Assembly: GCF_001457595.1 (NCBI RefSeq)
Contig: NZ_LN831039.1
Location: 5,820,001 to 5,852,000 of the forward strand
DNA: 32,000 nt
Reading direction: 5' to 3'
From: Mycolicibacterium smegmatis
GTDB taxonomy: Bacteria; Actinomycetota; Actinomycetes; Mycobacteriales; Mycobacteriaceae
The notes under the pieces were generated by a model, which ran no database searches, was not told the DNA's origin, and was given only the letters and a program-made list of their open reading frames with translations. The position numbers were made by a program, and so were the translations under genes. Of this stretch, positions 20,298 to 32,000 are shown one piece after another (position 1 is the stretch's first letter; each line of letters begins with the position of its first letter).

Positions 20298-20947
20298 CCG
20301 ATGGGGGTCAACGGACTGAGCACGTCACGGACGAACTGCGAGATGTTCACCGTCGGGTTGCTGTCCGGGAAGCTGACCGTGGCCAGGATGTTTCCGCCCG
20401 CGTCGGCGAAGTTCTGATCGGCGCGGCCCTGGTGCGACGACGACGTGACCAGGATGATGCCCGTCGTGCCGGCCTTCTTGGCCAGCGGCACCGAGAACTG
20501 CGCGTTCTGCACGGTGCTGTTGGCGCGGTCCTCGACGATGATCCGGTTGGCCGGAAAACCAAGCATGAGAAGCAGATTGCGCATCGCCGCGGCCTCGGTC
20601 ACGCCACGCTGCGGGTTCCCGCCCGTCACGATGACCGGCGACTGCGGGAACGCCTGCGCGATCACCAGTCCGGTCAGGGTGCGGTGGTACAGGATCTGCC
20701 GCATGGTGCCGTCGGGCTTGAGGCCGTAGCCCAGGATCACGATCGCGGGTTTGGTGAAATCCTTGGCCGCCACGGGCGGCGCCGCCGAGGCAACAGGGGT
20801 CTGCTGCACCAACGCGCCGCATATCAGCGCCATCGCGATCGCCACCGTCCCGATCAGGCGCCGTATGCCGGTCTCGTCCCTGGTGATGGCATCCCCTCGT
20901 CCCATCTCACCCCCGAAAAGTTGCGACACGCGTGAATATCGTGGCAT
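20294..20947 (-). CDS. DUF218 (YdcF/ElyC/SanA-like) domain protein with N-terminal membrane anchor or signal
   Basis: 217-aa ORF. AIVILGYGLKPDGTM...VIVTGGNPQRGVTEAAAM...IILVTSSSHQGRA is the DUF218 pattern. ATG 20905 is an alternative start. Confidence 0.7.
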   Translation of the reverse strand: MPRYSRVSQLFGGEMGRGDAITRDETGIRRLIGTVAIAMALICGALVQQTPVASAAPPVAAKDFTKPAIVILGYGLKPDGTMRQILYHRTLTGLVIAQAFPQSPVIVTGGNPQRGVTEAAAMRNLLLMLGFPANRIIVEDRANSTVQNAQFSVPLAKKAGTTGIILVTSSSHQGRADQNFADAGGNILATVSFPDSNPTVNISQFVRDVLSPLTPIG

Positions 20948-20959
20948 CTGAGGGAGATG

Positions 20960-21958
20960 TTACAGATAGGATCCCTGAGGCTCATCGTGTGCATGTGGCA
21001 GTACACGGGTAGGGCTGCCCTCCTCGATGTGCTCGGCCACCCAGGCGTCGACCTCGGTCCACACATCCCGCAGCCACGGGCCGAGATCCTCACGCGGCGG
21101 CAGTTCCTCGGTGGGTATCAGCGACACATGCACCACCAGTCTTCGGTGCACGGGTAGCCGCCACCACGGCCGTGCCCGCCCGTCCGCGGAGAAACCGCTG
21201 TGGGTCAGCACCAGCACACTGGCGTGCGGCGCGCCGGCCATCGCCGCCGCCGCACCGCCGGTTCGTGGCGGCAACGTGTACGACTGTCGCCAGGCGCGCC
21301 GCGCCTCACGCAACCGTCCCGACGACCGCAGCCGGCTGATCGCCTCATGCCAACGCGCCCAGCTGAAGTTGCCGCCCTCGGGGAACAGCAACAGCGCGTC
21401 GCCGCCGGCGAGCGAGGCGGCCAGTTCACGGACCTGCGCACGTGCCCGCTTTCCGCCCCGGCTCAGGAAGCACAGGCAGCCCAGGTCTCCGGCGAGGTCC
21501 AGCACAGGTTCGCACCGCAATAGGCCCTTGAGCACGATGCGTGTGCGCAACCGGTAGTGAAACGTCAGCAGCCAGGCGATCAGCAGGCTGTCTCCCGGCC
21601 CGCAGTGCCGCGAGAACACGATCACCGGTTCGTCACGGGGAACCTCGCCCGGCTCGACCGATCCGGTGTCCAGCAGTACCTCCACGTCGAGGATGCGGCG
21701 GGCGATCGTGTAGATCTTCCCGACGAGATCGCGGGTGAAGCGGTCGCCGTCCTGACCGCCGCCCAGCAGCTTCGCGAGGGCATACAGTTCCATCGCCGCG
21801 TAGGCGACCACGGCCGCCACGGTCCGGCTGGGCCTGCTCGACCGCAACACCAGGTCGGCCACGACGGCCAGCGCCATCGCTGGCACCGAGTACAGCAGCA
21901 CACCCAGCATCAGCACGGTGACCAGAGGCACCGTGACCGCGCGCCGCAGCAGCCTCAT
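20960..21958 (-). CDS. PlsC-type 1-acyl-sn-glycerol-3-phosphate/lysophospholipid acyltransferase, membrane anchored
   Basis: ATG 21958 overlaps the patatin stop (ATGA). 332 aa. N-terminal TM helices, HX4D motif in SRHCGPGDS and LLFPEGGN. The longer track ORF (to 22180) overlaps the patatin gene. Confidence 0.75.
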   Translation of the reverse strand: MRLLRRAVTVPLVTVLMLGVLLYSVPAMALAVVADLVLRSSRPSRTVAAVVAYAAMELYALAKLLGGGQDGDRFTRDLVGKIYTIARRILDVEVLLDTGSVEPGEVPRDEPVIVFSRHCGPGDSLLIAWLLTFHYRLRTRIVLKGLLRCEPVLDLAGDLGCLCFLSRGGKRARAQVRELAASLAGGDALLLFPEGGNFSWARWHEAISRLRSSGRLREARRAWRQSYTLPPRTGGAAAAMAGAPHASVLVLTHSGFSADGRARPWWRLPVHRRLVVHVSLIPTEELPPREDLGPWLRDVWTEVDAWVAEHIEEGSPTRVLPHAHDEPQGSYL

Positions 21959-22782
21959 GGCAGGGCCTTCAGGTATTCGCGGGTCGCGTCGTACGCCACC
22001 TCGGCGCGTCGCCCGATCCGGCGGCTGTCGCGGTAGCGCAGATTCGACCACGTCGCCGCGGCACGTTGGGGCTGACCCGACGGCAGGACGTGGACGGCCA
22101 CGTCGGAACGCACGCGTTCCAGATCTCCGTGGAACCGGTGCCGACGGGCGATCTCGAACGCCGCGAAACCGACCTCCCACAGAAAGCGCGGCACCCTGAG
22201 TTCCTCTTCGAGACGCCCGACGTGGAGCACCCAGATCGTGTCCGCGCCTCGCGACACCGCCCGGTCCAGCGGGATGCTGTTGACCAGCCCGCCGTCGAAG
22301 AAGTGCTCATCGCCTATGCGCACGGGTGGCAGCACACCCGGCAGCGCGCACGACGCGAGAACGGGCTCGACGAGATCGCCACTGTCGAACCAGTGTTCGC
22401 GGGCACGCTCGATGCTGGCCGCGACACACTCGAACGGAACCGCGAGTTCCTCGAACGTGTGCACCGGCAACCGTTCCCGCAGCAGCCGGCGAAGTTCCGA
22501 ATTGTCGTGCAGCGACGTGGGTCTGCGCAGCACCTCGGCGGCCCGGCGGATGAGGGATCCGCCGAACACGCCCTCGCCACCCAACGCATCCCAGAACTTC
22601 ACCAGTGCGCGCGCCCCTTCCGGGGTGGGGTCCGCCGCGAGCGCCGCGCCGTTGATGGCGCCCACCGATGTCCCGCACACCAGATCGGGACGAACCCCGC
22701 TCTCGAGCAGCGCGAGCGCCATCCCGGCCTCGGCCGCGCCCAGCACGCCGCCGCCTCCCAGTACGAATGCCACGCGGGACAT
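21955..22782 (-). CDS. Patatin-like phospholipase
   Basis: MSRVAFVLGGGGVLGAAEAG (oxyanion Gly-rich loop), GTSVG (GxSxG serine) and FFDGGLVNSIP (catalytic Asp). ATG 22782 lies 8 nt after the gvpK stop. TTG 22794 would overlap it. Confidence 0.88.
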   Translation of the reverse strand: MSRVAFVLGGGGVLGAAEAGMALALLESGVRPDLVCGTSVGAINGAALAADPTPEGARALVKFWDALGGEGVFGGSLIRRAAEVLRRPTSLHDNSELRRLLRERLPVHTFEELAVPFECVAASIERAREHWFDSGDLVEPVLASCALPGVLPPVRIGDEHFFDGGLVNSIPLDRAVSRGADTIWVLHVGRLEEELRVPRFLWEVGFAAFEIARRHRFHGDLERVRSDVAVHVLPSGQPQRAAATWSNLRYRDSRRIGRRAEVAYDATREYLKALP

Positions 22783-22790
22783 CGGCGCCG

Positions 22791-23081
22791 TCAACCGTGT
22801 TCGCGCGGCAGCAGCGGACCCAGCGGCCCCAGGTCGATGTTGAGGTCCTCTGGTCGCAGCCCGAAATACTCGCGCAGCTCCTCCATGGCCTCCTCGAGCC
22901 GCATGAGTCCGACCCCCAATCGTTCGACGGTGTCGTCGGACAGGTCACCGACGTCCACGCGACGTAGCGCCTGACGTTCCATCAACTGTCGCAGCAGTTC
23001 GACGATCGTGAGCACCAAACGGCCCAGGTCCCGCCCGACGTCCTCGGGATCCATCTCGATACGGCCGCTCTTCTTCTCCAT
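22791..23081 (-). CDS. gvpK: Gas vesicle protein GvpK
   Basis: 96 aa. RIEMDPEDVGRDLGRLVLTIVELLRQLMERQALRRVDVGDLSDDTVERLGVGLMRLEE...DLNIDLGPLG closely follows the GvpK consensus. Confidence 0.88.
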   Translation of the reverse strand: MEKKSGRIEMDPEDVGRDLGRLVLTIVELLRQLMERQALRRVDVGDLSDDTVERLGVGLMRLEEAMEELREYFGLRPEDLNIDLGPLGPLLPREHG

Positions 23082-23281
23082 CAGCGTGGCTCTGTCACGG
23101 GTTCCATCAGGGTGCCCACCGAACTGATCAGCGCCCGCAGCGAGATGTGCACCAGGTCGACGTCGGCGAGGCTGATCGTCAGATCACCCGCGATCACCAC
23201 GCCGCCTGCCAGCAGACGGTCGAGCAGGTCGACCAGCGCGACGTCATCGGTCCTCGGCGCGTGGATGCTCTCGACCGTCAT
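23081..23281 (-). CDS. gvpS: GvpA/GvpJ-family small gas vesicle protein (GvpS-like by size and position)
   Basis: 66 aa from ATG 23281, which overlaps the gvpL stop (ATGA). VALVDLLDRLLAGGVVIAGDLTISLADVDLVHISLRALISSV is the GvpA/J core. Its stop shares one base with the gvpK ATG (TGATG). Confidence 0.8.
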   Translation of the reverse strand: MTVESIHAPRTDDVALVDLLDRLLAGGVVIAGDLTISLADVDLVHISLRALISSVGTLMEPVTEPR

Positions 23282-23994
23282 GGCTGCCCCAGGCTCGTGA
23301 ACGAGTAGGGCGCCCACGGGCCCGTGATCTCCAGACGCAGGTGGTCGCCGTTCGCCGCGTCGACCCGCTGCGCCAGCCGTACGGCGCCGTCGTCGTCCAC
23401 GAGATAGGCGGCGTTGAGCACCATTTCGTCGCTGCGACCGGTGAGCCGGGGATCCTGTGGTGGATACAGCCGGTGGTCGGCGGCGAGCCCGGCCAACTCG
23501 TGGTGGAGTTCGTCGGCCGCCTCGGCCACGTGCTCACGACGTTGTGCGACGCGGGCACGTTCGGTCCGGCGACGCATCAGGTACGACGTACCGGGCCTGT
23601 CCGACGGGGTGTCCGGTGAATCCGTCTCCGCGGCCTCGGGAGCGGGAGCGGGAGCGGCGTAGCCTTTGACTCCCCACTCCGTGCGACCGCGGATCCGGTC
23701 GAGCGTCTCGGCCAGTTCGTCACGACGTTCACGGAGGAGTTCGTGCACACCTGAGTCTGAGTGGTAGACCGTCGCCATCCGCACCGGCGCGATCGAATGT
23801 GCCTGTGCGGCACGGTCGACCACCTCGTGGTGCGCGCGGGCCAGCTTCTCGAGCCAGCCCAGGTCCTCCAGGTGGGCCCGGATGGCCTGTTCGCTGAACC
23901 GCTCGCGGTCCACGGACGCGACGATCGCGGCCAGCGGTCCCTCGACGACGGTACGCACCTGTGCGTCATCGACCCCGACCATGCCGCCGACCAT
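23278..23994 (-). CDS. gvpL: GvpL/GvpF family gas vesicle protein, apparently lacking the canonical N-terminal strand
   Basis: VRTVVEGPLAAIVASVD...IAPVRMATVYHSD...EWGVKGY...LNAAYLVDDD...LRLEITGPWAPYSF are GvpF/L hallmarks. The first in-frame ATGs not overlapping the upstream gene are 23994 and 23982. The usual N-terminal YVYG(I/V) segment is absent. Confidence 0.75.
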   Translation of the reverse strand: MVGGMVGVDDAQVRTVVEGPLAAIVASVDRERFSEQAIRAHLEDLGWLEKLARAHHEVVDRAAQAHSIAPVRMATVYHSDSGVHELLRERRDELAETLDRIRGRTEWGVKGYAAPAPAPEAAETDSPDTPSDRPGTSYLMRRRTERARVAQRREHVAEAADELHHELAGLAADHRLYPPQDPRLTGRSDEMVLNAAYLVDDDGAVRLAQRVDAANGDHLRLEITGPWAPYSFTSLGQP

Positions 23995-24010
23995 GTCGGC
24001 GTCGGTGCGT

Positions 24011-24326
24011 TCAGACTCCCCGACGTCCAGGTTCGGTGTCCATGGTGAACACTCGGTAGAAGTAGGCGACACTGTCGGTGTCGCCGTTGTCGACGCGCTT
24101 GAACGCTTTCCCGATGGGGTTCGCATGTGTCGCAGTGGACGCGCGATAGTTGGTGAGCGGACCCATGTTGCGAACGAGATCGGGTGGGGTGTCGACCCAT
24201 TCGTAGCCGGCGTTGCGGACGAGCACCTCGCCGACGTAGCAGCCGAACGCGAAGATGGTCTCGGCCACCGCGTCGGAACCCGGCTCCCGTAACTCTTCCA
24301 GGATTCCGTCCACGAGACTCAGTGAG
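24011..24326 (-). pseudogene. 3' fragment of a 207-codon gene split by IS copy 1
   Basis: Track ORF 24011..24313 begins at an internal GTG. Reading continues in frame up to the IS junction. See the 5' fragment at 25815..26131. Confidence 0.75.
24318..24326. repeat. Target-site duplication CTCAGTGAG, left of IS copy 1
   Basis: Identical 9-mer at 25815-25823, immediately outside the other IS end. Confidence 0.9.
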
Positions 24327-25814
24327 GAGCAATGATCAATACCTGTGGATGAGCCTCGGTGTGGGGGCGTGAAGATGGGCGCACCTTCCCGGGGATGATC
24401 TTCACGGAATCAGGTATTCGATCAAGACCGGCGTTGGCGCGCTGGTTGGGAAGGTACGCCCATGCTCACCGTAGTTCACGACACCGAGGACGCCAACGAC
24501 AAGGCCAGCGGTGCTGGTCGGTCGTTGTTGGATGAGATCGTCCGCGACGGGGCCCGGCAGATGCTGGCCGCGGCGTTGCAGGCCGAGGTCGCCGCCTACG
24601 TGGCGCAGTTCGCCGATCAACTCGACGAGAACGGTCACCGGTTGGTGGTGCGAAACGGCTATCACCAGCCCCGGGAGGTGCTGACCGCCGCCGGCGCGGT
24701 GCAGGTGAAAGCGCCGCGGGTCAACGACCGCCGTGTCGACCCCGACACCGGTGAACGCAAGCGGTTCTCCTCGGCGATCCTGCCGGCCTGGGCGCGCAAG
24801 TCGCCGCAGATGAGCGAGGTACTGCCGCTGCTGTACCTGCACGGCCTGTCGAGCAACGATTTCACCCCTGCCCTCGAGCAGTTCCTCGGCTCCGGCGCTG
24901 GGCTGTCGGCCAGCACGATCACCCGGCTCACGGCGCAGTGGCAAGACGAGGCCCGCGCGTTTGGGGCCCGCGACCTCTCGGCCACTGATTACGTGTATCT
25001 GTGGGTCGACGGCATTCACCTCAAGGTGCGGCTGGACCAGGAAAAGCTCTGTCTGCTGGTGATGCTGGGCGTGCGTGCTGATGGCCGCAAGGAGCTCGTG
25101 GCGATCACCGACGGCTACCGCGAGTCGGCCGAGTCGTGGGCCGATCTGTTGCGCGACTGCAAGCGCCGCGGCATGACCGCCCCCGTACTCGCGATCGGCG
25201 ATGGCGCGCTCGGGTTCTGGAAAGCAGTCCGCGAGGTTTTCCCGGCCACCAAAGAGCAGCGGTGCTGGTTTCATAAGCAGGCCAATGTTCTTGCTGCACT
25301 GCCGAAATCAGCGCACCCGTCGGCGCTGGCGGCGATCAAGGAGATCTACAACGCCGAGGATATCGACAAGGCCCAGATCGCGGTCAAGGCCTTCGAGGCC
25401 GACTTCGGCGCGAAGTATCCCAAGGCGGTCGCTAAGATCACCGACGACCTCGATGTGCTGCTGGAATTCTACAAGTATCCGGCCGAACATTGGATTCATC
25501 TGCGAACGACGAATCCGATCGAATCCACCTTTGCCACAGTGCGTTTGAGGACCAAGGTCACCAAGGGGCCCGGATCACGAGCGGCCGGACTAGCGATGGC
25601 CTACAAGCTCATCGACGCCGCCGCGGCCCGCTGGCGTGCCGTCAACGCCCCACACCTGGTCGCCCTGGTCCGCGCCGGCGCGGTCTTCCATAAAGGCAGA
25701 CTGCTCGAACGACCCACCGACATCACCCCGCCAACATCGCCCTCAGACGGCGGTCAGCACGCCGGAACGGAGGTCGCCTGAAACACCCCGATCCACAGGT
25801 ATTGACAATTCCTC
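24327..25814 (+). mobile_element. IS256-family insertion sequence (IS6120-like), copy 1, 1488 bp
   Basis: 24-bp imperfect terminal inverted repeats: GAGCAATGATCAATACCTGTGGAT (24327-24350) against the complement of 25791-25814, GAGGAATTGTCAATACCTGTGGAT (21/24). Single transposase ORF and a 9-bp TSD. Size, IR length and TSD length agree with my recollection of IS6120 of M. smegmatis. Confidence 0.92.
24462..25781 (+). CDS. IS256/mutator-family transposase
   Basis: 439-aa ORF. YLWVDGIHLKVR and QRCWFHKQANVL are typical IS256-family motifs. Amino-acid sequence is identical to the copy at 27327..28646. Confidence 0.92.
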   Translation: MLTVVHDTEDANDKASGAGRSLLDEIVRDGARQMLAAALQAEVAAYVAQFADQLDENGHRLVVRNGYHQPREVLTAAGAVQVKAPRVNDRRVDPDTGERKRFSSAILPAWARKSPQMSEVLPLLYLHGLSSNDFTPALEQFLGSGAGLSASTITRLTAQWQDEARAFGARDLSATDYVYLWVDGIHLKVRLDQEKLCLLVMLGVRADGRKELVAITDGYRESAESWADLLRDCKRRGMTAPVLAIGDGALGFWKAVREVFPATKEQRCWFHKQANVLAALPKSAHPSALAAIKEIYNAEDIDKAQIAVKAFEADFGAKYPKAVAKITDDLDVLLEFYKYPAEHWIHLRTTNPIESTFATVRLRTKVTKGPGSRAAGLAMAYKLIDAAAARWRAVNAPHLVALVRAGAVFHKGRLLERPTDITPPTSPSDGGQHAGTEVA

Positions 25815-25823
25815 CTCAGTGAG
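25815..25823. repeat. Target-site duplication CTCAGTGAG, right of IS copy 1
   Basis: Matches 24318-24326. Confidence 0.9.
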
Positions 25824-26131
25824 GCCGGGGCGTAGCCGAGTTCGATGCCGGACACGTTGCGGGCGGCATCAACGGCCCGCTGGGCGAGTTCGGCGGCATG
25901 CTCCGGATCTGGTGGTGCCGGAAGCCGCAGTCCCCGTCCCGCCCATGCCGGCCCGGTCACGACGGGGCCTGGAACGGCGACTTGAGCTGCTTCGAGGTCA
26001 ATCGCCCGCATGACCGCCAGCCGCGCTTGGTGATCAGGCGTGAGCACTGTCCGGACGCCGTCGAACGACACAGCTTGATCTGAATCGTCCTGAATGTGAC
26101 CTACCCCGGTGGGGTGGGGCGATTCGGTCAC
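25815..26131 (-). pseudogene. 5' fragment of the 207-codon gene split by IS copy 1
   Basis: GTG 26131 overlaps the stop of the upstream Tdi1-like gene (GTGA). It reads VTESPHPTGVGHIQDD...NVSGIELGYAPASL up to the junction. The last 20 residues of track ORF 25754..26359 are IS-encoded. ATG 26011 is an alternative start. Confidence 0.65.
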
Positions 26132-26769
26132 GGTCTGTCTCCCTTTGACTGTCTCTTGGCCGCAACGAGGTGAGGCGGTGGCGAGCCTGGCCCGTTCTTC
26201 TGCCCGTGTTCCCAGAGCTGTTGTGCGAACGACAGGTACACCTCGACGGAGTCGAGGGTGAGGTTTCCGACCTCCCGCTTGCCGCCGTAGAAGCCCGGCA
26301 CAGTTGCTCCCGCGCACGAGTCGAACGCCAGCTGGTCGATGCCCGCAGCTTCCATCCATTCGCGGAACAGGTCGGGCAGCAAGAAGTCATGCGCGATCGG
26401 AACGCTCAGCGCGCCCTCGAACGACTCCACGTCCACCCACGGCGTGACCGAGCCGTCGAAAGGATCGAGAACCACCACGGTGCGCAACGTTTGGCTGCTG
26501 TCAGACGCCCCCTCGACCGTGAGCCGAGTCGTCACGGCGAACTGCCGTGCCAGCCAGTCGAACGCGAACACCTCGGCGGCGAGTCCTCGCGCACCGCACA
26601 TCGCATCGACAGCTACTTGCGCTGCGGGCGCGGAGTCGGCGTCGTGGAACCGGAGCAGGCCGCGGTTCATGGAGCACCCACACAGGCCGCGGTCGGCGAA
26701 GGTGCCGCCGACCAGGCCGGGTCGCCACTGGGCATCTGGCCGTGTGGGCGGATGGAATGAGAAGTCCAT
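26128..26769 (-). CDS. GAD-like + DUF1851 (T6SS immunity protein Tdi1-type) protein
   Basis: 213 aa. The C-terminal half VVVLDPFDGSVTPWVDVESFEGAL...LFREWMEAAGIDQLAFDSCAGATVPGFYGGKREVGNLTLDSVEVYLSFAQQLW follows the DUF1851 pattern. N-terminal WRPGLVGGTFADRGL resembles the GAD-like domain, which looks N-terminally short. Confidence 0.6.
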   Translation of the reverse strand: MDFSFHPPTRPDAQWRPGLVGGTFADRGLCGCSMNRGLLRFHDADSAPAAQVAVDAMCGARGLAAEVFAFDWLARQFAVTTRLTVEGASDSSQTLRTVVVLDPFDGSVTPWVDVESFEGALSVPIAHDFLLPDLFREWMEAAGIDQLAFDSCAGATVPGFYGGKREVGNLTLDSVEVYLSFAQQLWEHGQKNGPGSPPPHLVAAKRQSKGDRP

Positions 26770-26944
26770 CGCGGTAATCAGTCCAACTGGTGAGAGAACG
26801 TCGACATGTCCTTGCGCGTGGAGAACCGGGTCGCCACTCGCCGTCTTCGTCGTCTTCGAGCGGCGGGCGTGGCTCGCGCATCACCGACACCGCCCAGATC
26901 ACGCCGTGGACCACCGCTACGACGATCGACTCCGCCGAGCATTG

Positions 26945-27175
26945 TCACGCTGACCGGACCACGATGAACTGATCAGGTTCGAGCATCACGTTGTCGTACC
27001 GGAATTTAGTGGACGAGGACGCATCCGGCAGGCTGACGTCGACTGCGTAACCCTCCACGGGGTGCTGAAATACCTCTACGACCACCCCGCGTGTCCCTTT
27101 CGGAATCTGCCAAGACTGCGTTTCGCCGGGCACGTCCACCAGAAGTTCGACGCTGTCGTTGACTCTGGCCTTCAT
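26945..27175 (-). CDS. DUF4926 domain protein
   Basis: 76 aa from ATG 27175: MKARVNDSVELLVDVPGETQSWQIPKGTRGVVVEVFQHPVEGYAVDVSL...VMLEPDQF. This is an SH3-like small-protein pattern of DUF4926. The ATG shares one base with the stop of the restored upstream gene. GC3 is lower than in core genes. Confidence 0.55.
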   Translation of the reverse strand: MKARVNDSVELLVDVPGETQSWQIPKGTRGVVVEVFQHPVEGYAVDVSLPDASSSTKFRYDNVMLEPDQFIVVRSA

Positions 27176-27293
27176 CACTTCCACACCTTCAGGAAGTTTG
27201 TGATCATGCGTGGCACTCCGTTCTCGACTTGCCATACGGTGACGAGTGTTCCATCACCCGATGGCCCGCTGATGGGGACATTCACTTGAAACC
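27175..27293 (-). pseudogene. 3' fragment of a 191-codon DUF6883-like gene split by IS copy 2
   Basis: Reads (Q)VNVPISGPSGDGTLVTVWQVENGVPRMITNFLKVWK then TGA at 27177-27175. It is too short to appear in the ORF track. Confidence 0.65.
27285..27293. repeat. Target-site duplication CTTGAAACC, left of IS copy 2
   Basis: Identical 9-mer at 28782-28790. Confidence 0.9.
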
Positions 27294-28781
27294 GAGGAAT
27301 TGTCAATACCTGTGGATCGGGGTGTTTCAGGCGACCTCCGTTCCGGCGTGCTGACCGCCGTCTGAGGGCGATGTTGGCGGGGTGATGTCGGTGGGTCGTT
27401 CGAGCAGTCTGCCTTTATGGAAGACCGCGCCGGCGCGGACCAGGGCGACCAGGTGTGGGGCGTTGACGGCACGCCAGCGGGCCGCGGCGGCGTCGATGAG
27501 CTTGTAGGCCATCGCTAGTCCGGCCGCTCGTGATCCGGGCCCCTTGGTGACCTTGGTCCTCAAACGCACTGTGGCAAAGGTGGATTCGATCGGATTCGTC
27601 GTTCGCAGATGAATCCAATGTTCGGCCGGATACTTGTAGAATTCCAGCAGCACATCGAGGTCGTCGGTGATCTTAGCGACCGCCTTGGGATACTTCGCGC
27701 CGAAGTCGGCCTCGAAGGCCTTGACCGCGATCTGGGCCTTGTCGATATCCTCGGCGTTGTAGATCTCCTTGATCGCCGCCAGCGCCGACGGGTGCGCTGA
27801 TTTCGGCAGTGCAGCAAGAACATTGGCCTGCTTATGAAACCAGCACCGCTGCTCTTTGGTGGCCGGGAAAACCTCGCGGACTGCTTTCCAGAACCCGAGC
27901 GCGCCATCGCCGATCGCGAGTACGGGGGCGGTCATGCCGCGGCGCTTGCAGTCGCGCAACAGATCGGCCCACGACTCGGCCGACTCGCGGTAGCCGTCGG
28001 TGATCGCCACGAGCTCCTTGCGGCCATCAGCACGCACGCCCAGCATCACCAGCAGACAGAGCTTTTCCTGGTCCAGCCGCACCTTGAGGTGAATGCCGTC
28101 GACCCACAGATACACGTAATCAGTGGCCGAGAGGTCGCGGGCCCCAAACGCGCGGGCCTCGTCTTGCCACTGCGCCGTGAGCCGGGTGATCGTGCTGGCC
28201 GACAGCCCAGCGCCGGAGCCGAGGAACTGCTCGAGGGCAGGGGTGAAATCGTTGCTCGACAGGCCGTGCAGGTACAGCAGCGGCAGTACCTCGCTCATCT
28301 GCGGCGACTTGCGCGCCCAGGCCGGCAGGATCGCCGAGGAGAACCGCTTGCGTTCACCGGTGTCGGGGTCGACACGGCGGTCGTTGACCCGCGGCGCTTT
28401 CACCTGCACCGCGCCGGCGGCGGTCAGCACCTCCCGGGGCTGGTGATAGCCGTTTCGCACCACCAACCGGTGACCGTTCTCGTCGAGTTGATCGGCGAAC
28501 TGCGCCACGTAGGCGGCGACCTCGGCCTGCAACGCCGCGGCCAGCATCTGCCGGGCCCCGTCGCGGACGATCTCATCCAACAACGACCGACCAGCACCGC
28601 TGGCCTTGTCGTTGGCGTCCTCGGTGTCGTGAACTACGGTGAGCATGGGCGTACCTTCCCAACCAGCGCGCCAACGCCGGTCTTGATCGAATACCTGATT
28701 CCGTGAAGATCATCCCCGGGAAGGTGCGCCCATCTTCACGCCCCCACACCGAGGCTCATCCACAGGTATTGATCATTGCTC
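27294..28781 (-). mobile_element. IS256-family insertion sequence (IS6120-like), copy 2, 1488 bp, inverted relative to copy 1
   Basis: Position p of copy 1 maps to 53108-p. The ends I compared base by base (135 bp of leader plus both terminal IRs) and every overlapping ORF translation on both strands are identical to copy 1. It has its own 9-bp TSD. Confidence 0.92.
27327..28646 (-). CDS. IS256/mutator-family transposase
   Basis: 439 aa, identical to the product of 24462..25781. Confidence 0.92.
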   Translation of the reverse strand: MLTVVHDTEDANDKASGAGRSLLDEIVRDGARQMLAAALQAEVAAYVAQFADQLDENGHRLVVRNGYHQPREVLTAAGAVQVKAPRVNDRRVDPDTGERKRFSSAILPAWARKSPQMSEVLPLLYLHGLSSNDFTPALEQFLGSGAGLSASTITRLTAQWQDEARAFGARDLSATDYVYLWVDGIHLKVRLDQEKLCLLVMLGVRADGRKELVAITDGYRESAESWADLLRDCKRRGMTAPVLAIGDGALGFWKAVREVFPATKEQRCWFHKQANVLAALPKSAHPSALAAIKEIYNAEDIDKAQIAVKAFEADFGAKYPKAVAKITDDLDVLLEFYKYPAEHWIHLRTTNPIESTFATVRLRTKVTKGPGSRAAGLAMAYKLIDAAAARWRAVNAPHLVALVRAGAVFHKGRLLERPTDITPPTSPSDGGQHAGTEVA

Positions 28782-28790
28782 CTTGAAACC
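28782..28790. repeat. Target-site duplication CTTGAAACC, right of IS copy 2
   Basis: Matches 27285-27293. Confidence 0.9.
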
Positions 28791-29247
28791 GGTCACCCCA
28801 CTTCGTTGCGGGAAGCGCCTCGGCGGGTGTGCTGCCCAGCTGTGACTGTATCTGCGCCACGACGTCGCTAGCTGCTGACTGCCTTCCCACCTCACTGTCG
28901 ACGTCGTAACCGATCTGCTGCCAGGCTTGCCACTTTCCGCCGTTGTTGACGTTTGAGGGGTCCATCGAGTAGGCCTCAAACTTCCTTGGATCGATAACGG
29001 CTTCACCCGCGTTGACTAGCGCATCTCCTGCGTGAGGGGCGTAGTCCCCCACCGCGGGTGAATCGCCAACAGCGTCCCCGCCAGCGTGGTGCTCTGCGTG
29101 CGAATCGGGATGTCCAGCGTGCCCCGCGGAGGGTGCGTCGACATGAGGAGTCGGGGCGTCGTCGACGTGTCGACCCGCAGCGCCGAGGGCGTCGAGTCCG
29201 TGCTCGATCCCCTCGCCGAGGATCTTGGCCCCGGGCCACGGGACCAT
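28782..29247 (-). pseudogene. 5' fragment of the DUF6883-like gene split by IS copy 2
   Basis: ATG 29247. A His/Asp/Gly/Ala-rich N-terminal tract (HAGHPDSHAEHHAGGD) is followed by IDPRKFEAYSMDPSNVNNGGKWQAWQQIGYDV...ATKWGDRFQ. The last 9 residues of track ORF 28756..29247 are IS-encoded. Confidence 0.65.
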
Positions 29248-29255
29248 TCCCGCGG

Positions 29256-29267
29256 CCGAACGTTCGG
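29256..29267. promoter_or_regulatory. Perfect 12-bp palindrome CCGAACGTTCGG, 9 bp upstream of the DUF6883-like gene start
   Basis: Read directly from the sequence. Its position is typical of autoregulatory operators of two-gene toxin/antitoxin-like modules. Confidence 0.35.
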
Positions 29268-29395: not shown

Positions 29396-29599
29396 CTACT
29401 TCCGTCGCCGTCGCCACGGTCGGTCGGGTACCTGTCGCAGCTTGACCTGACTCGCCGGCACCCGCGTGGTGTGCCCGCAGCTGCTGCAGCAGTACGTACG
29501 CGAGCGAGTGCCGGGCTCCCAACCGACAAGAGTCTGCCCCGGCTCGTGCTCCACGCCGCACGCCTCGCACCGCTCCGGCGCCACCTCGGCCCACGCCAC
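29396..29599 (-). CDS. Possible small Cys4 zinc-ribbon protein (67 aa from GTG 29599)
   Basis: This is the C-terminal part of track ORF 29396..29911: VAWAEVAPERCEACGVEHEPGQTLVGWEPGTRSRTYCCSSCGHTTRV...RRRRK. GC3 is high in this frame. The start is uncertain and no family is recognised. Confidence 0.35.
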   Translation of the reverse strand: MAWAEVAPERCEACGVEHEPGQTLVGWEPGTRSRTYCCSSCGHTTRVPASQVKLRQVPDRPWRRRRK

Positions 29600-29622
29600 G
29601 GCGCAGACGGTAGCCGCGACCG

Positions 29623-29651
29623 GGGACAGGAAACTCGATTTCGCCTGTCCC
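29623..29651. promoter_or_regulatory. Inverted repeat GGGACAGG-N13-CCTGTCCC in the divergent region between the zinc-ribbon ORF and the phosphoesterase gene
   Basis: 8-bp perfect arms, read directly from the sequence. Confidence 0.3.
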
Positions 29652-29675
29652 TGTGCACGCGTACTCTCGCCGCCC

Positions 29676-30245
29676 GTGGAGTACTTCACCGCCGACTTGC
29701 ACCTGGCGCACCCGAAGCTCGCGCGGCTGCGCGGGTTCGACACCGTCGCGTCACACGACGCCGCGGTCATGGCGCAGCTGTACCGTCTGTCCCCTGAGAC
29801 CGACGAGCTGTGGGTGCTGGGCGACATCTGCTCGGGCGGCGTAGCCAGCATGGAATCAGCTCTGGCGCAGCTGAGCACGCTGCACGTGCCGATGCACCTG
29901 GTGACCGGCAACCACGATCCCGTGAGCCCGATGTACCGGAACGCACAGAAGCACTTCGCCGACTACGCGGTGGTGTTCGCGAGCGTGCAGCAGGTAGCGC
30001 GGACGAAGGTGGGCGGCGAGGGCGTGATGCTCTCGCACTTCCCGTACGCGGGCACACCGGACCGGTTCTCCCGCAAGAGCTTCGACCAGTACCAGCTTCC
30101 CGACCTCGGCATGTGGCTGATCCACGGCCACACGCACTCGGGCGAGCGGCGGTCGGGGAAGCGGTCGATCTGCGTCTCGCTGGAAGCGTGGGATCTCCGG
30201 CCGGCATCGGCCGAGGAGATCACCGCGGAGATGCAGCTGCGCTAG
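29676..30245 (+). CDS. Small calcineurin-like metallophosphoesterase
   Basis: GTG 29676 gives 189 aa with all core motifs in order: DLH (FTADLHLAH), GD (VLGDI), GNHD (VTGNHD), H (LSHFP) and GHTH (IHGHTHS). The upstream part of track ORF 29466..30245 has no motif support. Confidence 0.75.
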   Translation: MEYFTADLHLAHPKLARLRGFDTVASHDAAVMAQLYRLSPETDELWVLGDICSGGVASMESALAQLSTLHVPMHLVTGNHDPVSPMYRNAQKHFADYAVVFASVQQVARTKVGGEGVMLSHFPYAGTPDRFSRKSFDQYQLPDLGMWLIHGHTHSGERRSGKRSICVSLEAWDLRPASAEEITAEMQLR

Positions 30246-30745
30246 GACTCACTGTTGTCTGTCGGCACCAGCTGGGCGAGGTACTCGTCGAACGACGCGG
30301 CGACGAACGACTCGACGTCGGGCTCGCGCTCCTCGGTGTCGATCACGACGACGGCCGGGTTGGTTCGGAGCCCCGTCGGGTCCGTCGTTGACCGCCGATA
30401 GTCGAGACACAGATCCCAGTGCCCGTCTCCGTCGAAGGGGACGAGCCACTCCGCGTCGGACGGCCTGGGTTCGAAGTCCTCGTCGTCGTGCCACCACGCG
30501 TCCTTCTCGAGGCGCGGGAACCTCGTTCCGATGCCGCGGATGATGTCGTGGGTCGTGTTGTAGTCCCGGTCCTCGGGGAAGCCGACCTGGAGATAGCCAC
30601 CGTTCTGGCGACGGAGCAGGGCGACGAGGGATTCGGGCAGGCGCACACCCAGTCGTTGTTCGGTCGCGTCGAGCAGCTCATCGGTCAACGGCGGCTGCAC
30701 ATAGTTCTCGTAGGGCGGCACTTTCCAAACGTGTGCTGGGTCCAC
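30242..30745 (-). CDS. SMI1/KNR4 (SUKH superfamily) immunity-type protein
   Basis: 167 aa. LTDELLDATEQRLGVRLPESLVALLRRQNGGYL...WLVPFDGDGHWDLCLDY is the SMI1/KNR4 pattern. Its stop overlaps the phosphoesterase stop (CTAG). Confidence 0.7.
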   Translation of the reverse strand: MDPAHVWKVPPYENYVQPPLTDELLDATEQRLGVRLPESLVALLRRQNGGYLQVGFPEDRDYNTTHDIIRGIGTRFPRLEKDAWWHDDEDFEPRPSDAEWLVPFDGDGHWDLCLDYRRSTTDPTGLRTNPAVVVIDTEEREPDVESFVAASFDEYLAQLVPTDNSES

Positions 30746-30895
30746 TGCGTCAGGCTAAGGGTAGGTGGGGGCCTCCGCCGAGCTGGCAAACACATGCGTA
30801 GGCGGTAGCGGCGACCGCATCTACTGCACGTGAATGCTCGGCGTGTCGCGCAGAGCACACGTCGGACGCTGGAATCGCCTGGGATGCTTCAGCGC

Positions 30896-32000
30896 ATGGC
30901 ACGGATACCCGACTACGTGAAGGTCATCGATCTGGACAGCGGCCGCCGCTACGAAGTGCGACCCGAGGTCACCGGCGCTGACGGCAAACGGAGGCAGAAG
31001 CGCAAGCGGTTCAAGACGTTGAAGGAGGCTGTCGACCACTACACGGCCATCGCCGGTGACCGCGGCCGCGGCGTGCACGTTGCGCCGTCGGAGCTCACTG
31101 TCGAGGATGCCGTGGACAGCTGGTTGCTCGGGCAGCGGATCAGACCCAAGACCATGAGCGCGTACATCACGAGCCTTCGACCGATCGTCGACCACCTCGG
31201 GAAGCGCACCGTCCAGTCCATCACCAAGGACGACCTGGAACAGGTAGTGCAGGCGCTGCGCGCGGGCACGTCGAAGATGGGCACCTGGAACGCCCCCACC
31301 AAGTTGACGAAAGCCGCGAAGAAGGTCCGCTCCCCCTGGGCGCCCAGCAGCATCAACCCGATGCTGGCCCGCACCCGGAGCATCTTCGAGGATCTTGTGA
31401 ACCAAGGCGTCGTGGTTCGGAATGTCGCCGCCCTGGTGAAGCCCCTCGCGACCGACACCGAGAAGACGATGAACACGTTGAACGCGGAGCAGGTCACCCA
31501 GTTGCTCGCCGTGACCGACTCGCATTGCTACGGAATCGCCTGGCGGCTGGCGGTTCTCGGCCTGCGCCGCGGCGAGATCCTCGCGTTGACGTGGGACGCG
31601 GTCGACTTCGACGCCGGCACCCTCGCCATCTCCGCCGCGCGGCTCGCCACAGCGGGCGGCGCCACGACCGGAGCCCCGAAGACGAAGACCAGCGTGCGCA
31701 CCCTCCCGATGCCCGACGACTTGACCGCTGCGCTCCGCCGCGTCCGGAAGCGTCAGAAGGAACAGAAGCTCGCGCTGGGATCGAAGTGGACCGACAGCGG
31801 CTACGTCATCGTGGACGAGTTCGGAGTCGCGCCGTATCCCGACACGTTGACCGCTGCGTGGCGCAAGGCACTCGCCAACGCCGGTCTCCCCCACGTTCGG
31901 CTGCATGATGCGCGACACAGCTGCGCGACCTTGATGCACCTCTCGGGTGTGCCGACCGTGGTGATCGCGGCGTGGCTCGGCCATCAAGATCCCGGCTTCA
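30896..32000 (+). CDS. int: Tyrosine recombinase / phage-type integrase (partial; runs off the window end)
   Basis: Absent from the ORF track because it is open-ended. From ATG 30896: MARIPDYVKVIDLDSGRRYEVRPEVTGADGKRRQKRKRFKTLKEAV... Catalytic-domain motifs LGLRRGEILALTWDAVDF, HDARHSCATLM and WLGH. ATG 30884 and GTG 30830 are in-frame alternatives. The 388-aa minus-strand ORF here is antisense. Confidence 0.88.
   Translation, partial: MARIPDYVKVIDLDSGRRYEVRPEVTGADGKRRQKRKRFKTLKEAVDHYTAIAGDRGRGVHVAPSELTVEDAVDSWLLGQRIRPKTMSAYITSLRPIVDHLGKRTVQSITKDDLEQVVQALRAGTSKMGTWNAPTKLTKAAKKVRSPWAPSSINPMLARTRSIFEDLVNQGVVVRNVAALVKPLATDTEKTMNTLNAEQVTQLLAVTDSHCYGIAWRLAVLGLRRGEILALTWDAVDFDAGTLAISAARLATAGGATTGAPKTKTSVRTLPMPDDLTAALRRVRKRQKEQKLALGSKWTDSGYVIVDEFGVAPYPDTLTAAWRKALANAGLPHVRLHDARHSCATLMHLSGVPTVVIAAWLGHQDPGF

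Follow-up and report, generated by a model that had tools for sequence, protein, structure and literature searches.

The window analysed here is a stretch of 32,000 nucleotides from Mycolicibacterium smegmatis (NCBI RefSeq assembly GCF_001457595.1, contig NZ_LN831039.1, positions 5,820,001 to 5,852,000 of the forward strand). Its minus strand contains a two-gene cassette, in which a gene ending in a DUF6883 domain is followed by a gene of the DUF4926 family and is split by the insertion sequence (IS) IS6120. The best explanation of this locus, to which we assign a probability of roughly 80%, is that it represents the orphan remnant of an ESX/type VII-secreted toxin cassette of the PEST type (phage-encoded ESX-secreted toxin), with a BECR-type RNase toxin and a DUF4926 immunity protein. 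Sequence comparison showed the truncation and its exact junction, the membership of a toxin family that swaps its C-termini, and the pairing of DUF6883 with a downstream DUF4926 gene. Structure prediction showed a confident alpha+beta fold for the toxin domain and a small SH3-like barrel for the partner.

In the proposed course of events, deletion or illegitimate recombination would have cost the cassette its helper gene and, from the toxin gene, the first ~455 codons, which encode the WxG secretion domain and most of the linker. The last ~25 pre-toxin codons, the His/Asp-rich linker, the DUF6883 domain and the translationally coupled DUF4926 gene would then have been left over. DUF6883 is probably a BECR-type (colicin-like) RNase that would cleave the tRNA or rRNA of the target cell and so arrest its growth, with the invariant or near-invariant K89, Y93, K105 and R153 as candidate catalytic residues, and the DUF4926 protein would neutralise it by binding over the active site. 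The orphan toxin, without its secretion domain, would not be exportable. Its likely value to M. smegmatis would lie in the immunity gene, which might protect against neighbours (M. setense, M. goodii) that carry the full-length toxin, and the toxin fragment might in addition be kept as a reserve for recombination. IS6120 has very recently transposed into codon 155/156, in one strain lineage only, and left the immunity gene intact.

The truncated toxin gene and its full-length relatives

A previous reading of the DNA, made from its letters only (hereafter the sequence-only reading), had described an IS-inactivated two-gene module and proposed that removal of the IS would restore one ORF (open reading frame). 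Excision of positions 27294–28790 in silico, comprising the 1489-bp IS and one 8-bp copy of its target site duplication (TSD), fused the flanks in frame and gave an ORF of 191 codons, from 29247 to 27175 on the minus strand, with exactly the peptide that had been quoted. The 5′ part of this ORF (28791–29247, minus strand) holds codons 1–152 and the first base of codon 153, and encodes the end of the pre-toxin region (~25 aa), a His/Asp/Ala/Gly linker and the first ~76 residues of DUF6883, which begins at aa 77 (position 29019). The 3′ part (27175–27293, minus strand) holds the final 36 codons and the stop, and encodes three of the four beta-strands of the domain together with the conserved G162, P163, G165, W173, P180, R181 and T184.

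Residues 77–186 of the restored protein matched DUF6883 (PF21814) with 35.5 bits (E 1.3e-8, model positions 2–107 of 110), above the Pfam gathering score of 27 bits, and the domain alone scored 37.6 bits; the family assignment suspected previously was therefore correct. The conserved positions of the family, numbered along the restored ORF, are K89, Y93, K105, G113, R122, Q132, G151, R153, G162, P163, G165, W173, P180, R181 and T184, and the window allele keeps every one of them. The N-terminal ~85 aa had been regarded as low-complexity sequence. This description holds for the His/Asp-rich linker before the toxin domain, but residues 1–25 (MVPWPGAKILGEGIEHGLDALGAAG) are the end of a pre-toxin region that is conserved in full-length toxins.

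Related loci in eight Mycolicibacterium/Mycobacterium genomes encode such full-length proteins, with ~650–730 aa. Their build comprises an N-terminal helical domain with a WxG motif (GGTTWEGDAKDAA), a Pro/Asp/Lys-rich spacer, a pre-toxin region ending in ...DAAGMVPLPGAKILGEGIEHGLDALG..RH.DD.PTPH, a His/Pro/Asp-rich linker, and C-terminal domains that are unrelated to each other (RNAse_A_bac, Tox-REase-5, Endonuclea_NS_2, and CdiA_C_tRNase). When the N-terminal 488 aa were used as the query, 261 relatives of ~610–815 aa were found, from Mycolicibacterium and Mycobacteroides; these brought TNT, HNH and YqcG as further C-termini, as well as two full-length toxins with DUF6883, P0171 (M. setense, 670 aa) and P0173 (M. 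goodii, 655 aa). The secretion domain with its motif was present in P0171, P0173 and loci L001–L008, and one relative carries the source label "WXG100 family type VII secretion target". In locus L002, the beginning of the toxin gene is overlapped by a 92-aa EspC-like gene (23.1 bits, just short of the cutoff of 23.5 bits), and a CdiI_2 immunity gene followed the RNase A-type C-terminus. The window ORF has no WXG100-like secretion domain: it starts at approximately residue 455 of the full-length proteins, with nothing homologous upstream. No ESX helper gene was found upstream in the window, where a 218-bp spacer is followed by a divergent metallophosphoesterase gene.

The nearest match in the database was P0001 (M. 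goodii, 324 aa), which was 82% identical over the whole restored ORF and extended further toward the N-terminus. With the IS excised, the window and the M. goodii locus shared homologous DNA only from 29256 to 26820, and the flanks were unrelated. This common region (26820–29256, minus strand) contains the toxin 3′ fragment, the immunity gene and ~125 bp downstream, and is regarded as the transferred or retained cassette. Homology to P0001, to the locus L027 described below and to the full-length toxins started abruptly at 29256, with none upstream, in agreement with the previous suggestion that the gene is a 5′-truncated orphan. The "start" ATG of the orphan is an internal Met of the conserved DAAGMVPxPGAK, and the window ORF begins at the Met of DAAGMVPWPGAK.

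The junction was located with L027, a metagenomic locus (ENA ERZ27256381, contig k141_88043, 7624–10510) that carries a 570-aa toxin allele, P0190. The last 1.7 kb of this allele were 100% identical in DNA to window positions 29256–26082, P0190 was 100% identical to the restored ORF over all 191 aa, and the allele itself appeared to miss the first ~55 codons. The comparison placed the junction between ...CCGAACGTTCG and GCCGCGGGAATGG. The L027 integrase was only ~70% identical to that of the window island, and the SUKH gene found there is missing from L027, as is most of the metallophosphoesterase gene. This suggests, at the level of sequence, that the cassette was recently exchanged between different islands. 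A copy in M. goodii (L009; PEBB01000077, 9084–11205; 324 aa) was also 5′-truncated, at a different point, which indicates that nested 5′ truncations of the toxin gene are recurrent; another M. goodii genome has the full-length 655-aa version (P0173). The L009 copy lies just downstream of a tRNA-Ser gene, and an Imm1-family gene is found 1.6 kb further downstream.

A perfect 12-nt palindrome (CCGAACGTTCGG, 29256–29267) lies 9 bp before the ATG, as had been noticed in the sequence-only reading. However, it is not a native operator, because it consists of flanking DNA that the first base of the retained fragment completes; it is in part a product of the junction. Perfect 12-nt palindromes were somewhat over-represented in the window (25, compared with 14.9 ± 3.8 in mononucleotide shuffles), so that the one at the truncation junction is statistically ordinary, one of 25, and its candidature as an operator was rejected. 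Most 12-nt palindromes in the window were GC-rich and restriction-site-like, for example CCGCGATCGCGG and GCGCGATCGCGC.

The DUF6883–DUF4926 pair: partners, predicted fold and probable activity

An exhaustive search that used no profile returned 322 representative DUF6883 relatives at E ≤ 0.001. The domain ended no more than 15 residues from the C-terminus in 118 of the 120 relatives with a complete domain, and the N-terminal extensions ranged from 0 to 1023 aa. Among 64 longer proteins, the N-terminal partners included WXG100 (6), WXG100_2 (3), T7SS_signal (2), RHS (2) and eCIS_core (2), and further PT-HINT, PT-TG, PPE, EspB_PPE and phage portal, while about one third of the representatives were short stand-alone proteins of 100–160 aa. 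The role of DUF6883 as a toxin domain in polymorphic toxin systems is well supported by these sequences.

A DUF4926 homologue of 72–81 aa was found directly 3′ of DUF6883 in every sampled locus, mostly with overlapping stop and start. The sampled loci were the M. goodii gene L009, a 504-aa protein beside an eCIS_core gene (L022), a 1134-aa Rhs protein downstream of DUF2169 (L023), a 659-aa protein (L024/L025) and a 126-aa stand-alone gene (L026). The downstream immunity gene changes with the toxin domain: behind the RNase A-type C-terminus of L002 it is CdiI_2, not DUF4926. The conserved adjacency, together with the DUF6883 match, upheld the previous proposal of a toxin-immunity layout with DUF4926 as the partner. 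In P0023 (319 aa), DUF6883 (aa 119–237) is followed in frame by a DUF4926-like segment; this may be a natural fusion, a read-through or an annotation artefact.

In the window, the DUF4926-family gene (26945–27175, minus strand) encodes 76 aa and is the putative cognate immunity gene. The order in the cassette is toxin first, then partner, and the toxin TGA shares a base with the ATG of the partner (TGATG, 27177–27173), exactly as previously described. The family name, which had also been given previously, holds with a qualification. The protein itself scored 23.6 bits against DUF4926 (PF16277; E 3.5e-5, model positions 2–38 of 57 only), which is below the gathering score of 29.1 bits and marks a divergent member. 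However, it could be aligned over its full length with the partners that follow DUF6883 in L022, L023, L024, L026 and P0023; all seven downstream partners matched DUF4926 at E ≤ 0.01 (best E 6.5e-18), and several of its close homologues carried precomputed PF16277. On this alignment evidence it is plainly homologous to DUF4926 members that pass the threshold. Its predicted structure was a five-stranded SH3-like barrel (pLDDT, the predicted score of the local distance difference test, 89.8), in which no DNA-binding domain (helix-turn-helix, ribbon-helix-helix, or AbrB) was found.

The statement that neither family has an assigned function is now outdated. A recent preprint named DUF6883 BECR-Tox3 and predicted it to be an RNase, with DUF4926 as the putative immunity protein (bioRxiv 10.64898/2026.08.28.747851, Aug 2026). 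Its profile-profile network placed BECR-Tox3 in the colicin-like BECR group, and its experiments covered BECR-Tox2 only (bioRxiv 10.64898/2026.08.28.747851).

The AlphaFold2 model of the toxin domain, built from a 35-sequence alignment, had a pLDDT of 97.1 and a predicted template modelling score of 0.88. Three helices (17–23, 34–40, and 48–65) pack on a four-stranded antiparallel sheet (71–77, 80–90, 95–105, and 108–118), and this modelled topology is the build of a BECR-type core. Foldseek against BFVD matched the C-termini of phage MuF-like "minor capsid" proteins (template modelling (TM) scores 0.77 and 0.69; E 5e-8 and 1e-7).

Several results weigh against the explanation favoured here. 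For the RNase part, Foldseek of the toxin model against the PDB gave nothing at E ≤ 0.001 (best E 0.02, TM ≤ 0.32), a profile search of PDB sequences with the toxin domain gave no match, and a relaxed Pfam scan of 35 DUF6883 members detected no second family, even weakly. Because of this lack of a PDB, profile or Pfam match, the RNase assignment rests on the topology and an unreviewed preprint, and no published toxicity or neutralisation experiment was found for any DUF6883/DUF4926 pair. For the origin and use of the cassette, no phage structural genes were found in the island, so that the phage-encoded part is not supported here. No full-length toxin labelled M. smegmatis occurred among the organism-labelled matches of the 120 listed, and therefore the supposed recombination reserve has no visible partner gene in M. 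smegmatis. In addition, annotators call a shorter, 126-aa version of the orphan ORF, and a generic sigma-70 promoter scan of the cassette found no promoter-like site. A terminator scan gave two terminator-like matches, both inside the IS and at chance level.

We inferred the RNase activity from the predicted topology, the chemistry of the conserved residues, the nuclease-rich alternative C-termini and the preprint. The alternative is that DUF6883 is a toxin of another kind, for example a membrane- or protein-targeting effector, and that its BECR topology is coincidental; we consider this unlikely. The PDB matches of Foldseek mentioned above were generic curved-sheet folds (NTF2-like, cystatin-like, and de novo designs), no sequence or profile link to a nuclease was found, and the experiments in the preprint did not extend to BECR-Tox3. 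Against this, the domain occurs on phage MuF-type proteins like PBECR RNase-type effectors, the preprint reported the profile-profile placement among colicin-like BECR proteins, and the alternative C-termini on the same toxin scaffold are mostly nucleases. Moreover, K, R, Y and T are frequent among the conserved residues of the domain (K89, Y93, K105, R122, R153, R181, and T184), as they are in metal-independent RNases.

The state of the truncated pair was also considered. It might be a live intracellular toxin-antitoxin (addiction) module that stabilises the island or aborts phage infection, in which a product of 191 or 126 aa, made from the internal start, is checked by the DUF4926 protein. 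In favour of this, the pair still has a whole toxin domain in which no conserved residue is lost, the toxin stop overlaps the partner start, the pair is invariant in 11 IS-free genomes, and among the stand-alone DUF6883 representatives one (L026) has the same downstream partner. Compared with M. goodii, the toxin domain showed nine synonymous changes and one non-synonymous change (ratio of non-synonymous to synonymous rates, dN/dS, 0.03), and the immunity gene showed eight and three, respectively (dN/dS 0.11). These low values indicated that the coding sequence was constrained somewhere along these lineages. However, the constraint need not reflect the orphan state, because the longer L027 allele is 100% identical; it may come from full-length copies, and the truncation or exchange was very recent. 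The invariance has little power, since genomes of the species are ~99% identical. Moreover, the ORF starts with an internal Met that lies by accident at the deletion junction, the promoter scan was negative, and the partner, predicted as an SH3-like barrel, has no DNA-binding domain with which it could autoregulate the pair. We consider a working toxin-antitoxin module improbable, and prefer to regard the pair as the remnant of a secreted toxin cassette.

The IS6120 insertion and the surrounding island

IS6120, of the IS256 family, occupies 27294–28782 on the minus strand (1489 bp) and was identified by its ends, its TSDs, its transposase and a second identical copy. It splits the restored 191-codon ORF, so that the IS-inactivated module of the sequence-only reading was confirmed. 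The transposase gene (27327–28646, minus strand; 439 aa) matched NF033543, the IS256 family, with 296 bits (cutoff 150) and the Pfam family Transposase_mut. The imperfect inverted repeats, of ~24–25 bp, are GGAGCAATGATCAATACCTGTGGAT and GAGGAATTGTCAATACCTGTGGAT, and the end TTGACAATTCCTC was identical to the IS6120 end quoted in a preprint (bioRxiv 10.64898/2026.02.27.708680). The TSD TTGAAACC is present as two matching copies at 27286–27293 and 28783–28790, and as a single copy at the empty site of IS-free genomes.

The element sits after codon Q155 (codon 155/156), inside the second beta-strand of the domain, and is oriented like the toxin and immunity genes. In the truncated product, of 163 aa, three of the four strands are missing, as well as seven conserved positions, which means that the toxin domain is inactive; judged by the model, the insertion certainly kills it. 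The immunity gene, downstream of IS6120, is intact.

The second IS6120 copy (24326–25814, plus strand) is 100% identical to the first, has the TSD CTCAGTGA, and interrupts a 207-aa ORF, which lies just upstream of gas-vesicle genes. The two inverted copies bracket positions 25815–27293, with the toxin 3′ end, the immunity gene and a 213-aa ORF. An inversion between them was ruled out, and both are simple insertions, because each has its own matching 8-bp TSD.

Over 11.8 kb, the window was 100% identical to CP082846.1, both IS6120 copies included. CP089215.1 was 100% identical over the 13.5 kb compared and carried only the copy at 24326–25814, with the toxin ORF intact, which indicated that this second copy was inserted first. 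Strain mc2155 (CP001663) and the other retrieved loci lacked both copies and had an uninterrupted empty site, which is present in about 20 M. smegmatis genomes. In all, 11 IS-free M. smegmatis loci, mc2155 among them, answered the previous call for IS-free alleles: their toxin fragment and downstream gene equalled the restored sequence, except in L014, with one synonymous change in each. Apart from CP082846, at most two similar assemblies showed the arrangement with both IS copies. The insertion into the toxin gene is a single, very recent event in one lineage, and as such says nothing about the cost of the toxin.

The previous view, that disruption of only the first gene is what one would expect for a costly product, was not supported. 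Selection for removal of a costly toxin, with the immunity gene spared, would account for the interrupted toxin beside a whole partner, and the orientation of the IS, the end of which bears an outward TTGACA, could still feed transcription into the immunity gene. However, the event is confined to the assemblies named above, CP089215 lacks it with no other difference over the compared 13.5 kb, and the ORF is intact in every other strain, none of which shows a different inactivating change. A further fresh insertion of the same element, into an unrelated ORF at a distance of 1.5 kb, fits the local hopping of an active IS; IS6120 actively transposes in laboratory M. smegmatis and made up 6 of 10 new transpositions in one mutant set (bioRxiv 10.64898/2026.02.27.708680). 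We therefore consider selection for this insertion very improbable.

In the same preprint, an outward TTGACA −35 element of IS6120 had built a strong hybrid promoter upstream of mpr (bioRxiv 10.64898/2026.02.27.708680). Here, the IS end that faces the immunity gene (27294–27312, minus strand) carries an outward TTGACA 7 bp from the end, and a weak −10 element, GAATGT, follows after 17 nt, ~130 bp upstream of the immunity ATG. Expression of the immunity gene could possibly be continued or raised by such a hybrid promoter. It is highly doubtful that IS6120 has thereby made the cassette an immunity-only unit, IS-driven and movable like a composite transposon, which, if true, would mean that an active IS captures and up-regulates orphan immunity genes against ESX toxins.

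The intact alleles are of practical value. The standard laboratory mycobacterium, mc2155, holds the IS-free toxin domain and its partner and is a convenient native test system, in which BECR-Tox3 could be tested experimentally for the first time as an RNase, and DUF4926 as its immunity protein. It could also be asked whether orphan immunity genes protect M. smegmatis from the full-length ESX toxin of M. setense or M. goodii. The genome pair that is identical over the compared 13.5 kb, with and without the IS in the toxin gene, represents a natural control.

The cassette lies in an island with a tyrosine integrase gene (30884–32000, plus strand), which is cut by the window end. In mc2155, the island opens with this integrase, which is located beside a tRNA-Lys/Glu/Asp/Phe cluster, adjacent to tRNA-Phe, ~1.6 kb from the cassette, and no attR repeat of tRNA-Phe was found that convincingly bounds the island. 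The GC contents of the toxin 3′ end and the immunity gene were 54.2 and 58.4%, respectively, compared with 65.6% for the toxin linker and 67.5% for the window, and the low values fit a horizontal origin.

Next to the toxin ORF, and divergent from it, is the metallophosphoesterase gene (29466–30245, plus strand). A gene for a 167-aa SUKH-1 / SMI1_KNR4 protein (30242–30745, minus strand; 62.2 bits against a cutoff of 25.4) converges on it, and their 3′ ends overlap by 4 bp. SUKH-1 / SMI1_KNR4 is a known immunity superfamily of polymorphic toxins. The SUKH-1 gene stands between the island integrase and the orphan toxin, with no toxin gene beside it. Downstream of the immunity gene, the 213-aa ORF (26128–26769, minus strand) is co-inherited with the cassette in L027. 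It matched no Pfam family at threshold and showed a weak, sub-threshold match to the type VI secretion system immunity family Tdi1_C (E 0.037); by this resemblance it may be another orphan immunity gene. The NCBIfam scan gave no match for the toxin, the immunity protein, this ORF or the N-terminal domain of the full-length toxins. Beside the island, at ~20900–24300, is a gas-vesicle cluster (GvpL/GvpF, GvpA, and GvpK by precomputed Pfam of matching loci), followed by genes for a patatin, an acyltransferase and a carboxylic-acid-reductase-like protein of 1173 aa.

Comparison with known systems

The IS shares with IS6120 of M. smegmatis the IS256-family transposase, the length of ~1.5 kb, the 8-bp target duplication and the terminal sequence TTGACAATTCCTC; it shows nothing unusual and merely occupies a new insertion site.

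Colicin E5 and colicin D tRNases and other BECR RNases resemble the predicted toxin domain in size (~110–120 aa), in the N-terminal helices and four-stranded antiparallel sheet, and in the basic or aromatic conserved set. They are likewise placed at the C-terminus of a delivery protein and have a small dedicated immunity protein. The difference is that the window domain has no significant structure or sequence match to a solved member.

With BECR-Tox3 (bioRxiv 10.64898/2026.08.28.747851), the cassette has in common the same two Pfam families, in the same order and read as toxin and immunity protein, and the same C-terminal place on larger proteins, among them phage MuF-type proteins, with which the BFVD matches agree. 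The preprint stresses Phage_Mu_F fusions, whereas the carrier here is a mycobacterial ESX/type VII polymorphic toxin, of which the window has only the 5′-truncated, IS-split orphan, with a divergent DUF4926 protein (23.6 bits).

PEST cassettes consist of a WXG100 helper, a polymorphic toxin and an immunity gene, and are found in mycobacterial prophages, defective prophages and elements resembling phage-inducible chromosomal islands (PMC10654092). The full-length relatives of the window gene are alike in their N-terminal WxG domain, linker and swappable C-terminal TOX domain, in the downstream immunity gene and small upstream ESX helper (the EspC-like gene of L002), in signs of recombination between cassettes, and in the site next to an integrase and a tRNA gene. 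However, neither helper gene nor secretion domain is present in the window, so that this copy cannot work as a PEST system, and no phage genes are visible in its island.

Orphan modules of a toxin C-terminus and its immunity gene also occur in contact-dependent growth inhibition (CDI) loci (cdiA-CT/cdiI) and in Rhs loci. They are alike in the truncated toxin fragment with a short pre-toxin stretch followed by an immunity gene, in the clustering with other orphan immunity genes (here SUKH-1 and possibly the Tdi1-like ORF), and in the retained homology that could allow recombination with a full-length gene. The family in the window differs in using ESX/type VII rather than type V or VI secretion, and in its actinobacterial host. 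Orphan cassettes, PEST systems, the DUF6883–DUF4926 pairing and the hopping of IS6120 are all of kinds already known, and the locus unites them at one site without changing a concept.

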